A DNA stretch of 64,000 nt. Origin: Octopus vulgaris. Its lineage: Eukaryota. The DNA lies in contig OX597815.1 of the NCBI GenBank assembly GCA_951406725.2, positions 53,754,001 through 53,818,000 of the forward strand, in the 5' to 3' direction. The notes below the pieces were generated by a model, which had not been told where the DNA came from, searched no databases, and saw nothing but the letters and a program-made list of their open reading frames with translations. A program made the position numbers and the translations under genes. This document shows positions 7,367-46,821 of this stretch, in pieces (position 1 is the stretch's first letter; every line of letters begins with the position of its first letter).

Positions 7367-7545
7367 TTAAGAAATGTGGGGATTTGGATATGTTGCTTCC
7401 AACACAAGGGGCATGCCTGTTTTAGCAACCAACCTTGTTCCATTGCAGAGTCTGGGTGTACCAAGGTTTCTTAATAGCATTATGGGAGCACCTGTTTTCA
7501 TGATCAGAATGTGTGGTGGAAATCCTGGTGGCTGAAGTGAATTAA
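7367..7545 (-). pseudogene. Helitron Pif1-family helicase fragment
   Basis: [39 protein letters not shown] matches the Helitron helicase motif P.H.L.LK.G.P.MLLRNL....LCNGTRL. Confidence 0.9.
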
Positions 7546-7546
7546 A

Positions 7547-7760
7547 CAATAATAATAATAATAATAACAACAACAACAACGTCGAAAAATAATTTAGGAA
7601 TGAGAACCCAGGTTCGAAATTTCCCCAAGACACCCGATGAAGGCTGGACGGTATATCATCCGAAAGGTTGTGTTAACAACAAACAAGATGAGGACAAATA
7701 TCCGTCAATTGTAAATAATGTAAATAATGTACATAATTGCTCATCTCTTAAACATAGAAC
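7547..7760 (+). mobile_element. Penelope-like pLTR fragment with a mutated hammerhead (7629-7674), inserted in the Helitron
   Basis: gacac CCGATGA a ggctg...catcc GAAA gGTT gtgtt; the segment separates the Helitron N-terminal and helicase pieces. Confidence 0.6.
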
Positions 7761-14194: not shown

Positions 14195-15317
14195 CCAGGT
14201 CATCCCATAAGTTCTGTCCGATTTTACCTTTTTTAAAATTGAATGAAATTTAATTGTATTTTAGAATGTCTAATGGAATTAAAAATTATTTTTATGAATT
14301 TGTGTACAAGTAAGCTAATTAAATATTATTTTACTGAATAATAGAATTAAAATTTCTTTGATTAAAACCCTTTCTAAAATGAAAGTATCCAAAGAGCATT
14401 TAAGGCACCTAATGCTTTATGAATACAAAAAAATGGAAACTCTGCAGCCGAAGCGACTCGAAACGTACCCTCAGTTTATGGGAAAGAATGCTTGAGTGAA
14501 AGAACTTGCAGAAGATGGCTTGCAAAATTCAGAAGTGGAGATTTCAGCCTTGAAGATGAAGATCGAACAGGACGTCCAGTTGAGTTTGATGATAAGCTCT
14601 TTGAGGCATTGCTTGAAGAAAATCCTGCATTATCAGTTGAAGAATTGGCAATAAAGCTTAGATCAAATCATACAACTGTTCATCGTCATCTTCAACAATT
14701 TGGAAAGGTTCCTAAACTTGGAAAATTGGTGCCTCATGAATTGTTCGAAAGCAACCGCAAATCCCGAGTTGACATCTGCTCTTCTCTCCATTCTCGTGAA
14801 CTCATTTCACCCTTTTTGGATAGACTTGTGACTGGTGACGAAAAATGGATCTTCTATCGAAATGTTAAACGTCGTAAACAGTGGCTTGGTAAAAGTGACA
14901 AAGCTCAACCACAACCGAGAAGGGAACTTCATGGGAAAAAGGTTATTCTCTCTATCTGGGGGGATTGCAAAGGAGTAATTCACTTTGAATTGTTACCACC
15001 TAATGCAACAATCAATGCTCAAGTCAGCAATTAGAGTGTTTGAACCAAGCTTTGGAGTGATGTTTCATCAGGACAATGCGCGACCCCACACTGCAAAGAT
15101 CACATCACAGAACATCGAAGAGCTTGGTAGGGAAAAAATTCCTCATTCACATTATTCTTCCGACCTTGCTCCTTCAGGCGACCATTTGTTTCGTAGTTTA
15201 CAGAATCCTTTGGGGGACATAACTTTCGCTAGCCGGGAGGAGATCGAAACTGACATTTAAATATAACATTTGATCACTTGTTTTCTTTATTCGGATTGAA
15301 CTTATTGGACGACCTGA
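14195..15317 (+). mobile_element. Mariner transposon with both TIRs and TA target duplication
   Basis: ta|ccaggtcatcccataagttctgtccga ... tcggattgaacttattggacgacctga|ta. Confidence 0.93.
14379..15260 (+). pseudogene. Mariner transposase, frameshifted
   Basis: MKVSKEHLRHLMLYEY, then LVPHEL, VTGDEKW, HQDNARPH and YSSDLAPSGDHLF; at least two frameshifts and deletions. Confidence 0.93.
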
Positions 15318-24036: not shown

Positions 24037-25300
24037 TAGTGTTGTATTAATATACGGTTGTAGTAGGGTTGGAAGATTAGATTGGGAAAAAGAATATATG
24101 AGAGTTATGGGGAGATAAGAACGGGGTGGGGTTGTAATTATTTGCATTTTGAGAATAGATTTAGTGCTCGATATTTGCAGGTGAATGTTATACTGCTGCG
24201 TTCATTAAGACAGACCATAGATTGCAAAGTAGCCATGACCTCGGCTATGCAGAGATCACACTTATTATTATACCCGCTGTAAGGTTTGCCGTGGGTAATA
24301 ATAGACCATTCGAGAGTGTAAGGGATTGAATTAATCGTTAGTTTACTGATAAGTTGAAATAACGATGTGCTGTTAGAATTTGTTGAGGATTTGAAGCTAG
24401 AGTAGTGATTGCTCACTTTAGCTTTGAACGTTGTGCTACATGAGCCGATGTAAAATATAGTTGTAGTAGTTAATTGATACTGTGGCCTTATAAACTATGC
24501 TTTTAGTGCGACAGCGGTTATTCAAAGAACAGGAGGTTGCGCATCTACAGTTGCATAGGTTTGTAAGAGGTTTTCCAGATGAGCTTGTGAGGGGATTGTT
24601 ATTTAGAGAGGGATCGGTGTTTGGTTGGTTATTATAGTTGGTGCTAGGGTTATGATATGTTAAGGAGTTGAGGGCGGTGTTTTTCGGTTGTATGGTATGA
24701 TAATTATTGTGTCCAGTGGTATCCTCTGTGGTATTCTCTATTATGACAGGAGGTATATTTGGGGATTGTGATAAATTTAAGGGTCGGGTGTAAGCAATGG
24801 CACTATAGTTGTAGTTGTGAGGGTTTGTTTTGTTATGGGGGTCAGTTGGTTTATTGGGTTTATATGTATGAAGTTGGAGGTTATGCTGAATTAATTTACT
24901 AAGGTTGGAGTTAGCTGTTGATGAATTTCGGTGTTTCTTGTTGTTAAGATGTCGGATAACTCTAGCAATATCGGTGGTGATGGTGGAGCAGGACAATTTT
25001 ATAGATTGGATGAGGTCGGGGCTAAATATTTTCCTAAAGGGGTTAGATTTAGGGAGGTGTTTTTCGAGTACGGTGAAGAAGAGTTTGGATACTAGAGTCT
25101 GGTTAAGGGCGAAGTGGGGGTGGAACAATATGACGTCTCAGATACTATTTCGTTTTATCCGATTAGGGGCGGGGTTATCTGGATGGAAATAGGGTTTGGA
25201 GTGCGTATCTTGGTGTCTGTTTTGATGGGTTGTGGTGTATATTGGATTAGGGGGTTATCTGGTGGCGAAGGGGGTGGTTGTTAAGTCGTTATGTATATAT
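24035..25300 (-). mobile_element. 5'-truncated Penelope-like retroelement (RT C-terminal region, Cys linker, GIY-YIG endonuclease)
   Basis: LEKHLPKSNPFRKIF...IKLSCS; CNCRCATSCSLNNRC; IVYKATV...YIGSCSTTFK...NHYSSF...LEWSII...KPYSGYNNKCDLCIAE...LNERS...CKY. Confidence 0.88.
24138..25128 (-). pseudogene. Penelope-like ORF C-terminus with a frameshift inside the GIY-YIG motif
   Basis: ORFs 24436-25128 and 24138-24416 are joined by a frameshift between IVYKATV and YIG. Confidence 0.85.
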
Positions 25301-25304
25301 ATAT

Positions 25305-25733
25305 TAGGCGCAGAGTGGCTGTGCAGTAAGAGGCTTGCTTCTCAACCATATGGTTCCAGGTTCAGTCCGACTGTGTGGCACCTTGGGCAAGTGTCTTCGA
25401 GTGTAGCCTCGGGCCGACCAAAGCCAGTGGATTTGGTAGACGGAAACTGAAAGAAGCCCGTCGTATTTATATATATGTGTGTATGCATGAGTTATGTGCG
25501 TGTACGCGCGCACGCATGAATGTGTGTGTTTGGGTGTGTCTGTGTTTTGCCCCCCCCCCCCCCCATCGCTTGACAGCTGATATTGGTGTGCTTACGCCTC
25601 TGTAACTTATCAGTTCGGCAAAAGAGACTGGTAGAATAATAGGCTTACAAAGAATAATTCCTGGTGTCGATTTGTTCGACTAAGGGTGGTGCTCCAGCAT
25701 GGCCACAGTCACATGGCTGAAACCAGTAAAATA
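25305..25733 (+). mobile_element. SINE family A, full-length, at the Penelope inversion junction
   Basis: ggcgcagagtggctgtgcagtaag...ccagcatggccacagtcacatggctgaaacc. Confidence 0.92.
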
Positions 25734-25946
25734 ATAAGGCCACAGTATCAATTAACTACTGCAACTACATTTTACATCGGCTCATGTAGCACAACGTTCA
25801 AAGCTAAAGTGAGCAATCACTACTCTAGCTTCAAATCCCCAACAAATTCTAACAGCACATCGTTATCTCAACTTATCAGTAAACTCAACCCCTTACACTC
25901 TCGAATGGTCCATTACTACCCACGCCAAACCTTACAGCGGATAAAA
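25733..25946 (+). mobile_element. Inverted duplicate of the Penelope GIY-YIG segment
   Basis: ataaggccacagtatcaattaactac...aaaccttacagcgg is the reverse complement of about 24270-24492. Confidence 0.9.
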
Positions 25947-25956
25947 TAATAAAATA

Positions 25957-37784: not shown

Positions 37785-39202
37785 TAACCAAATGAATAAT
37801 AACAGACGATGGATAATTGTCAGCTCATTACAGCCGTTTCTTAAGCATTTTTAAATAGAAGAATGAAAACATTGCTTCATTCAGAAAACCGTAATCATCC
37901 GATGAAAGGTAATTTCACAAACAAAAAAATATCCCAAGAATACAGCAGGGACGACAGACTTCAGTCACGGCCCTGTCGGTTTTTTGTCGTGATGTAATGT
38001 TCTCATCTTCTATAAAAAAAAGATGAAAGAAACGGTTGTAATGAGCTGACAATTATCCATCGTCTGCTATTATTCATTTTGATTATAATTCACTAACGGG
38101 ATTTACGACATGTCGCACGGCCTGGAGAATACCAGTAACGCACAATCAACGTAACGTGTGCTTTAGACCAGCCCTTAGGCGCTAAATACTCATAGGGATC
38201 CGATATGATATGGCTCAATCATTCTTCGGAACCACAGGTTTATCCAATCCTACCTGTTGTATATTATTTCAAGTATATATTATTTCAAGTACCCGATTCT
38301 GTCTGAATCCTTATTTTACTATATGTAAACATACATACATACATACATACATACATACATACATAATATATATGCTGGCCACTTGATCAGATCGATATTT
38401 AAATATCGATATTATCCTTATTTATAAATTTATATAATTCGTCAATTCAATGCGGTGTTTATTTTTGACCATATCGCGCTTGTGAGGTGGTTCACGGGCA
38501 ATTCACACTGGTCTTGTACATACGAGCATATATATGTATGTATGGACGTTCGTATATGTAAGTATAACGTGTGTTCTGTATATATGTATTTGTATTTATG
38601 TGCCCATCTGGTATATTCAACTGACGAAGGCAGAACTTATTTGAAGCAAACCCAGAAATCAAAGATCTTGAATTATCCAGTAAAATCGTTTTTTGCTAGT
38701 TTATTTTGTCTCTCTGTCATATCTCATGGCGCGATATGAACATTTAAGGTGGTTTTTAGGTCAGGGTTTTGATTGCTATCTCGGCATGGTGGTATCTCTC
38801 AGATACCCTTATTTATAGTCTTATATATATATACACGACGGGCCTTTTTCAGTTTTCATGTTTCAAATCCACTCACTGCGCTCTTGTCGGTCCTAGGCTG
38901 TGGTAGAAAAGTGGGAAAGAACCCGGAACCATGTGGTTGGGAAACAAGCTTTTTACCACACAGCCTCGCCAACCTATGCACACGCATTTTATAAAACGCT
39001 CTCAGTGATTAAATGTTCCGCTCACACCAGACTCTCAGTTTATAAATAATAGTTTAAAGCTTCCTTTTGTCATGAAGTAGTGTTCTCATCTTCTATAAAA
39101 AAGAAGTGAAAGAAACAGTTGTAATGAGCTGACAATTATCCATCGTCTGCTATTATTCATTTTGATTATAATTCACCAACGGGATTTACGACTTGTCGCA
39201 CG
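37785..39202. mobile_element. Penelope-like pLTR arrangement: one inverted copy (37785-37884) and two direct copies (37985-38119, 39065-39202) of a 100-135-bp unit
   Basis: Shared gaaac(g/a)g(t/c)tgtaatgagctgacaattatccatcgtctg; direct copies 1083 bp apart; a degenerate HHR-like motif in each. Confidence 0.7.
38615..38673 (+). ncRNA. Type I hammerhead ribozyme candidate
   Basis: attcaa CTGACGA agg...ccca GAAA tc aaa g ATC ttgaat: 6-bp stem I, stem III ATC/GAT, AUC triplet; stem II is weak. Confidence 0.65.
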
Positions 39203-39349
39203 CCCAATATACATATATATGTATATATACAAACATATAAGAGATGGCCATAATAGGACATCTGACTCACTAGAAAGAGCAGTTAAATTCCAAACCACTA
39301 CTAGTTGTAATTATGAAATGGAAAGAGAAATAAAAACGTTTACCCTATC

Positions 39350-39431
39350 CTTTCTGGACTATGCATAGTTTCGGCAATCTTTGTAAATAAAATAAATTAT
39401 TTACGATTGGCGTTGCCTCTTCAGCAGAAAG
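39350..39431 (-). ncRNA. Canonical type I hammerhead ribozyme
   Basis: Minus strand: ctttctg CTGAAGA ggcaa...ttgcc GAAAC tatgcata GTC cagaaag. Perfect 7-bp stem I, 5-bp stem II with G-C closing pair, palindromic stem III, GUC site. Confidence 0.9.
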
Positions 39432-40117
39432 CCAAGGCTAGCATATAGGCACGAGGCGATAAGGACCGTGCCTCGAGTCTATATGCTATAACTTTTCAAA
39501 ATCCACCACCATCGCGCGGTTTCTCAGCAGTAAATATAACTGCCGATTTAATTTCAAAATTATCCAAAAAATCTTTTTATCATTAATTAATAAATTTTAG
39601 GGTAGCAAAAAATATCTAGAAAAATTCTCCGCTACCAGCGGTCAAGTGAGAAAGAAAAAATAGTCAATAGACTATGTAATATACATTCAAACATATAAGA
39701 GATGGCCATAATAGGACATCTGACTCACTAGAAAGAGCAGTTAAACTCCAAACCACTAATAGTTGTAATTCTGAAATATATACATATATATATATATATA
39801 TATACACATATATATATATATACGTATATATATATGGCATTGCATAAACCGCTTATGTTTTGCAATATAAATAATTAAATAAATAAATACATAAATAATA
39901 ATTTTACGCCACAGCTTATAATCCAGATATTTTTATAGAATTGTATCCAGCATATTCCTTTTAGACATTAGCGTGGAAATACTTGAGAAGGTGAGATTAT
40001 ACAAAATTTATATTTGAATTTATATTACAAAGACTCGTAAAAAATAAAATTAGTACAATGAACAACAGTATAATTGAAATTATATAAAGATACTTTAAAC
40101 AAATCATATACATATAT

Positions 40118-46305: not shown

Positions 46306-46821
46306 GTTGTCCGGAAAGTTCGTGCCGATTTTTAAAGGAAAGAAAAAGCTCAATAAATACTTGCCATTACATTTTTAATCAACCAAACATGAACCATTTT
46401 GTTGCACAATGCGTCTCCATCTTTCCTTTAACTTGAAAATACCCTCTTTCCAGAATTGAGGTGGTTTCATCGCAAAGAATTCATCAAGGTATCTTTTTAC
46501 GTCATCCAAGGAATTGGAATGTTTACTATTAAGACTATTCTGCAGAGATCTGAATAAGTGGAAATCAGAAGGAGCAATATCTGGTGAATATGGAGGGTGG
46601 TGTAACACATCCCAGCCGAGCTGCAGCAATTTTTGTCTGGTTCCCAAAACATCAAGTGCCGAAAATGAACTTTCTTCCATTTTAAAGGGTTACAGAATTA
46701 ACATAGGTTATAGGAACACAAATCTTCTTCCACGAAAAGATAGCTTAAACTGTGCTCTTAATGGAGGTGTAGTCAAATCCTATTATATGGACTCAACCAT
46801 GTTCTAAAATAAGTCGAAAGG
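46303..46821 (-). mobile_element. Internally deleted mariner of the same family as 17702-18275, retaining the C-terminus (ORF 46375-46680)
   Basis: Same TIR tgggttgtccggaaagttcgtgccgattt and same 5' UTR; LGWDVLHHPPYSPDIAPSDFHLFRSLQ...W...NG; second TIR missing. Confidence 0.92.

Follow-up and report, generated by a model that had tools for sequence, protein, structure and literature searches.

A hammerhead ribozyme in the Octopus vulgaris genome belongs to a high-copy, protein-free repeat that is likely a non-LTR retrozyme copied by a Penelope-like enzyme

The window analyzed here, a 64,000-nucleotide stretch of Octopus vulgaris contig OX597815.1 (forward-strand positions 53,754,001 to 53,818,000), carries on its minus strand, at 39350..39431 in window coordinates, a type I hammerhead with a complete core and three stems. 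The core consists of CUGAAGA (39424-39418), GAAA (39372-39369) and C17 at 39357, with cleavage predicted between 39357 and 39356. Stem I (6-7 bp) joins a 5' arm at 39431-39425 to a 3' arm at 39356-39350, stem II (4-5 bp) joins GGCAA at 39417-39413 to UUGCC at 39377-39373 and continues into an internal loop and an AU-rich hairpin whose inserted 8-bp helix occupies 39404-39397 and 39390-39383, and stem III is a 4-bp helix formed within the 12-nt palindrome ACUAUGCAUAGU at 39369-39358. Direct reading and a descriptor match agree with the first-pass annotation of this DNA, made from the letters alone, on every core nucleotide and stem, and the cleavage position it predicted is correct by the same reading. 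The site thus has the conserved hammerhead core (CUGANGA, GAAA and UH, with three helices of which helix I is open). A type I descriptor run over both strands of the window had this site as its single match, against a mean of 0.05 loose matches, none of them as strong, in shuffled windows (n = 100), and strict and relaxed hammerhead descriptors gave no second convincing hammerhead in the 64 kb. Rfam returned only microsatellite look-alikes: no family reached the gathering score anywhere in the window, and near the hammerhead none matched even at E ≤ 10, a miss that likely reflects the long insert in loop II. The same core recurs in hundreds of other copies, which argues that it is no assembly error.

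Folding predictions for this site are mixed. The 82-nt hammerhead folds more stably than all of 200 shuffled sequences (z = -2.95), and the predicted minimum-energy structure is not the hammerhead, which lies above it by 2.9 kcal/mol in both the 82-mer and 39444-39337, by 6.3 kcal/mol in 39450-39335, the construct proposed in the first-pass annotation, and by 8.7 kcal/mol in the whole repeat unit, in models that ignore tertiary contacts. Such a gap is common in the family described below (median about 3-4 kcal/mol in three large clusters), and the window copy ranks 58th among 95 arms, 2 of 97 having been dropped. In these models, then, the predicted ground state is a different fold, and this counts against the retrozyme reading that we favor. 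The stem III hairpin is marginal by itself (+0.4 kcal/mol), and the palindrome is predicted to form an intermolecular duplex at -15.9 kcal/mol. A constrained fold places a distal extension of stem I past an internal loop (39438-39433 with 39347-39342, spanning 39342..39438). Among constructs that include this distal stem, 39444-39337 is predicted to misfold least. As a sequence the window ribozyme is an intact family type and likely active, although misfolding is predicted.

The hammerhead belongs to a high-copy mobile repeat, a context that the first-pass annotation had overlooked. Alignment to other copies delimits a single minus-strand insertion at 39225..39777, which comprises 1.2 units of a 458-nt noncoding monomer, is truncated at its 5' end at 39777, and ends 3' at a point of the family that we call A (about 39227-39221). 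The overhang beyond one unit creates a terminal direct repeat with a period of 458, a pseudo-LTR-like redundancy whose 3' copy (39228..39319) and 5' copy (39686..39777) differ at 4 of 92 bases, one of them at the eroded end. Three private changes fall within 26 bases of the 3' copy (39288-39313); the corresponding stretch of the 5' copy has none. A second 3' end used by the family, point B, is internal here (39582..39590), with a long hairpin at about 39600-39640 lying just 5' of it, and another stable hairpin (39439..39488) directly precedes the ribozyme on its 5' side. Both junctions lie in the presumed target, a TA-rich microsatellite at 39204..39227 on the 3' side and a TA microsatellite at 39778..39836 on the 5' side. 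A different 141-nt repeat pair, 93% alike (37982-38122 and 39065-39205), adjoins the 3' TA flank. The unit is 34% GC with a longest frame of 48 codons and one hammerhead, and when folded as a circle it is more stable than expected from 60 shuffles (z = -6.1). It therefore has the makeup by which retrozymes are recognized, a noncoding unit of a few hundred bases with GC below 45% and one type I hammerhead. With one hammerhead in 1.2 units the window locus falls in the monomer class, outside the "active" class that the rule of Li et al. (2026) reserves for two hammerheads. The first-pass annotation had set the intact stems against decayed neighbors; the window holds no further copy of the hammerhead family.

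The genome, in contrast to the window, holds many copies. Exact matching found 329 instances of a 24-mer from the 3' half of the ribozyme and 1,002 of a 19-mer that lies downstream of it by about 75 nt, whereas the reversed controls matched nowhere; these counts are of arms rather than loci and are lower bounds, and they amount to about a thousand scattered family pieces. A 241-base query gave 974 candidates, and among the 40 that were scored the best other copies are 89-95% identical. Numbering the unit from the first base 3' of the cut (u1 = 39356), we classified the ends of 162 arms from 113 loci, after 7 overlapping or duplicated loci among 120 had been dropped: 81 arms end at A (u120-145, mode 136), 63 at B (u218-250, mode 229) and 18 elsewhere. 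A and B are about 95 nt apart, 131 of the 144 A or B ends run into TA repeats, and the 5' ends, which are truncated, are variable. The window copy was first scored as "other" because its alignment ran into the microsatellite, and by sequence its end is A. The polarity of these fixed 3' ends is independent evidence that the ribozyme (minus) strand is the RNA strand.

Many loci consist of two arms placed back to back, and these combine the two ends in a constrained way. Among 44 such loci 33 are A+B, one is B+B and none is A+A, with one end unclassed in the other 10, where independent choice would give A+B in about half. A set of 63 loci chosen by the 19-mer with the ribozyme disregarded (7 of 70 dropped; four loci shared with the 113-locus set) contains 17 A+B and one B+B, 16 with one unclassed end, 28 single arms and one complex locus. 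Where the arms of one locus overlap they differ by a median of 3.4%, compared with 9.7% to other copies; 15 of 25 two-armed loci have arms within the closest tenth, and the 10 without clearly closer arms count against this pattern. Two fixed 3' ends, 5' truncation, back-to-back inverted arms and TA microsatellite targets together make the family footprint like that of a Penelope-like element (PLE) and are the features by which a PLE-mobilized insertion is recognized. In one locus (L151, 1867-2086) the upstream hairpin and the ribozyme are missing through a clean deletion inside the copy, between about u322 and u5-10, as though reverse transcriptase (RT) had skipped a structured block.

Direct tandems with two ribozymes are rare, with three clear cases among 172 loci (18 of 190 dropped): L054, L091 and L198, with spacings of 478, 468 and 489 and with 3, 4 and 9 mismatches in about 140, respectively. 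A further case (L108) is broken, and one apparent pair proved false. None of the 172 loci holds a long array of units, unlike classic retrozymes, and this counts against the retrozyme reading. The three tandems supply, at the level of the family, the at least two hammerheads expected of a retrozyme, and on its sequence features the family qualifies as a further member of the animal non-LTR retrozymes. Assembled contigs of two presumed-RNA runs hold family pieces, one of them across the cut site, a match that shows neither strand nor cleavage. By word-level matching, 25-39% of the words of the element also occur under three other organism labels.

The family is in effect a natural mutagenesis series, with strict selection and compensatory change during spread and none after insertion. 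We compared 37 complete ribozymes from loci chosen outside the ribozyme. Pairs 1-4 of stem I are formed in 37, 37, 36 and 36 of them, with swaps between G-C and A-U, C-G and U-A, and U-A and C-G; the stem I described earlier as perfect does form all 7 pairs in the window copy, but the seventh is formed in just 7 of the 37. The second pair of stem II exchanges G-C for A-U across subfamilies, and stem III occurs in four types that all keep a self-complementary 12-mer, one of them with U-G pairs. In all, pairs 1, 3, 4 and 5 of stem I, 2 of stem II and 3-4 of stem III covary across subfamilies, and 479 of 518 stem cells are paired compared with 414 ± 4 in 2,000 partner shuffles, a null that ignores relatedness. 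A tree built from the flanks places the stem types in different clades, though several forks are weak. Core position N7 varies freely and no other core column has a variant shared at ≥8%, in a tally where sequence of the 3' core had served to select many of the loci, a bias that does not extend to the 5' core. The suggestion that the palindromic stem III permits dimeric folding gains from these comparisons, the palindrome being kept by compensatory change in the three other subfamily types with an identical UGCA loop in 35 of 37, but a double hammerhead at the window locus, which has one ribozyme, would need two RNA molecules.

Changes private to single copies, which postdate insertion, are as frequent in the core (9/355) as elsewhere (410/15,307; Fisher P = 1.0). 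Together with the covariation, these equal rates argue that the ribozyme is filtered at each round of spread and decays freely once inserted, and so it is likely kept working by the spread of the element and not by a benefit to the host. Across 499 columns the window copy carries 6 private changes (1.2%), below the lower quartile (1.6%) and median (2.5%) of 52 arms. Because the core decays at the background rate and about 45 sites at 1.2% have better than even odds of staying unchanged, the intact window stems require no host selection. Of the two causes offered earlier for the perfect stems, recent insertion thus accords with a copy younger than most, and selection acted on the replicating element and not on the window copy. 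If a published Octopus vulgaris clock in which a distance of 0.09 corresponds to 25 million years (PMC13282606) applies, the insertion is about 3 million years old.

The loops also suggest a tertiary contact. In the window, GCCAA in the stem II loop (39411-39407) is complementary to UUGGC in the stem I loop (39435-39431), a candidate Watson-Crick contact spanning 39407..39435, and the corresponding five pairs of GCCA(G/A)/(U/C)UGGC are formed in 117, 125, 127, 103 and 126 of 130 ribozymes (3 of 133 dropped), in counts for which the motif was placed by best match, so that the first pairs lean toward pairing. Only the fifth pair varies (G-U in 90, A-U in 24 and G-C in 12 of 130). This conserved complementarity, a candidate pairing of 3-5 bp, suggests a short pseudoknot. 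Some copies depart from the consensus elsewhere: nine of the 37 (L157, L158, L188, L198, L149, L173, L156, L187 and L145) form a subfamily with A opposite A at the G10.1-C11.1 position that was nonetheless amplified and has covarying stems, a subfamily represented by L163, L169 and L180 has a CCGAUGA core (U4C) together with its own palindromic stem III, and G8 has changed to A recurrently in five unrelated copies (L150, L160, L170, L183 and L202), one of them at a CpG.

The repeat in the window has no open reading frame with a telomerase-like RT and a GIY-YIG domain and so is not itself an autonomous PLE. A GIY-YIG family search of the genome recovered an element that occurs in many copies and has an open frame of 781 codons. 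The frame is present in 8 of 8 copies examined, and its protein matches RVT_1 and GIY-YIG. The intact protein (765-781 aa) has a CxxxCxxC linker and is Neptune-like by the description in PMC8557442. In L233 (1664-5040) and L234-L240, an upstream frame of 300-480 codons overlaps the 765-aa RT and GIY-YIG frame, and short tandem repeats lie 3'. In 20 of 30 loci the 3' region of this PLE contains a minimal motif resembling a hammerhead, with a U3-A8 core, a variant described for PLEs (PMC4209133). The element stops in (TA)n at either of two points separated by about 40 nt, and 5 of 20 have the tail of about 40 nt. Its ends and those of the repeat have in common just the final AAT before the TA run. 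We rejected the intact PLE as a sequence donor (the best blastn match, which lies in TA-rich ends, has E = 0.04, and 8 loci gave no profile match), and shared 3' sequence with an autonomous partner was absent from two PLE groups (12 loci of one, 30 and 8 of the others). The window itself holds a decayed PLE-like remnant (24040-25137 and 25635-25949; thumb and GIY-YIG-like motifs by eye) that runs out into TA repeats; a fragment on the opposite strand lies close by, and the genome has 147 matches to the remnant. The remnant, taken as 24138-25137, was also rejected as a partner, as 12 related loci showed no likeness to the unit; it had no Pfam match, and no longer homologue was found. Used as the query, this one family gave no PLE-like protein beside 190 loci of the repeat. 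The intact TA-targeting PLE is therefore a candidate mobilizer and no more.

Two known systems resemble the octopus repeat. Animal non-LTR retrozymes, as described by Cervera and de la Pena in 2020 (PMC7229834) and by Li, Clavereau and Pollet in 2026 (10.64898/2026.07.22.740005), likewise have a noncoding, low-GC, highly self-paired unit with one type I hammerhead and occur as many dispersed monomers in genomes that also hold PLEs; the unit lengths given are 170-400 nt (PMC7229834) and 51-972 nt (10.64898/2026.07.22.740005), compared with 458-489 nt here. The octopus family differs in its rare tandems, long loop II hairpin and 4-bp stem III. PLEs and the hammerheads of their pseudo-LTRs (PMC4209133, PMC8557442 and PMC11167929) share with it two fixed RT starts, 5' truncation, partial tandems, an inverted arm, AT-rich or (TA)n targets and a hammerhead upstream of the starts, but the octopus repeat lacks RT and endonuclease and has a full hammerhead where that of PLEs is minimal, and its two ends are about 95 nt apart compared with a PLE tail of 30-40 nt. 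In the PLE footprint described in PMC8557442, copies form partial tandems and lie at microsatellites, with a 5'-truncated arm in inverted orientation and sometimes a tail, and PMC11167929 accounts for it biochemically: reverse transcription starts at two internal sites, and both cut strands are extended. In that in vitro work the PLE PAc showed no difference between strands in its start site, whereas the octopus repeat has, almost without exception, one arm at each end. Compared with metazoan type I hammerheads (newt, schistosome, and axolotl HHR_Amex1/2), the octopus family has all core bases, a 6-bp helix I, a 4-bp helix II with G10.1-C11.1 and a palindromic loop 3. Its helix III has 4 bp, where most of those have 1-2, its loop II is an internal loop topped by an AU-rich hairpin that varies, with 44-73 nt separating the two halves of the core, and its tertiary contact may be a short Watson-Crick pseudoknot. 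No Rfam model matches the family.

Taken together, we consider it probable that the protein-free 458-nt repeat is a non-LTR retrozyme copied by a Penelope-like enzyme and that its one insertion in the window is truncated and has a single ribozyme. An alternative that we regard as improbable is that the unit is the pseudo-LTR or UTR of an autonomous PLE and the copies its 5'-truncated ends. PLE pseudo-LTRs do bear type I hammerheads, partial tandems, inverted arms and tails (PMC4209133 and PMC8557442), the same footprint as here, but long arms enter the preceding unit and reach about 2.5 units with no coding sequence (L054), the 190 loci gave no PLE-like match to that one query family, and the repeat bears no likeness to the intact PLE. 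Domestication, in which host selection keeps the window ribozyme as an RNA-processing element, would account for its intact core and stems but is very hard to credit given that private changes hit core sites throughout the family as often as they hit the background, that intact stems are expected in a copy so little changed, and that it sits in a TA microsatellite as its siblings do.

Somewhat less remote, though still unlikely in our judgment, is a nonautonomous element copied through template jumps from linear multimeric or uncleaved RNA, with no circle, whose ribozyme does no more than trim the transcript or shape the RNA for the PLE protein. Of 72 arms from the 19-mer loci, 45 cross the cut site intact, as a linear template would allow, and 26 stop ≤43 nt 3' of the cut, as a cleaved 5' end or a pause of RT at stem I could give. 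Only one stops in the next 32 nt (P = 1e-6 for the excess against this 3' neighbor bin and 0.02-0.03 against upstream). The excess was nevertheless rejected as a sign of cleavage in vivo because the ends are diffuse; spread over u1-u38 with no sharp point, and with 4 of 73 within about 2 nt of the cut and no pileup, they do not favor a linear cleaved template either. PAc, moreover, used unprocessed RNA in vitro (PMC11167929). Linear templates would presumably shrink with each truncated round, yet subfamilies 20-30% apart and copies of more than a unit persist, and circles have been shown for coral, mussel and axolotl retrozymes (PMC7229834).

Under the retrozyme reading, the rare two-ribozyme loci would be transcribed and the transcript cut at each hammerhead, either as a monomer or, through the palindrome, as a double hammerhead. 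A host ligase would then join the monomer into a circle, as RtcB does with axolotl and mussel retrozyme monomers (PMC7229834). A PLE protein would nick (TA)n and start reverse transcription from A on one DNA strand and from B on the other, and synthesis would run back over the ligated cut site, at times for more than two units. The window copy would cut a passing transcript once and could not by itself release a monomer or circle. Two published observations count against this reading: PAc, the sole PLE tested in vitro, inserted normally even with a mutated hammerhead (PMC11167929), and cleavage was lacking in 8 of 9 Xenopus retrozyme dimers (10.64898/2026.07.22.740005). The absence of a pileup of 5' ends at the cut site counts against it as well. 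A more specific version, which we put forward only tentatively and think rather less likely than not to hold in full, is that the family is a long-lived lineage of viroid-like RNA circles whose spread needs a working, dimer-capable hammerhead with the pseudoknot contact, and that a dimeric PLE enzyme copies one RNA on both cut strands, always from A on one and from B on the other, recognizing structure over shared sequence. If true, it would show the purpose of PLE-type hammerheads and assign the two PLE starts to strands in vivo.

The window locus, a single passive copy, matters little in itself. The family bears on the question of whether PLE-type elements need their hammerheads or carry them along (PMC8557442; dispensable in vitro according to PMC11167929), and the A+B arm rule together with the intact TA-targeting PLE offers an enzyme-template pair for trans-mobilization of an animal retrozyme, which is proposed in the literature but for which we found no demonstration there. 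Our literature search found no paper on cephalopod retrozymes, although supplements of retrozyme or PLE papers may list cephalopod motifs, and none on twin priming in Penelope elements. Neither "ribozyme" nor "retrozyme" occurs in the main text of an octopus repeat annotation from 2026. Other mobile elements have left remnants in the window as well, including a Mariner/Tc1 transposase at 14423-15034 (Pfam Transposase_1 and HTH_48), another at 46375-46689 recognized by eye only, and a Pif1 helicase 2B fragment at 7367-7672 that is probably the remnant of a Helitron.
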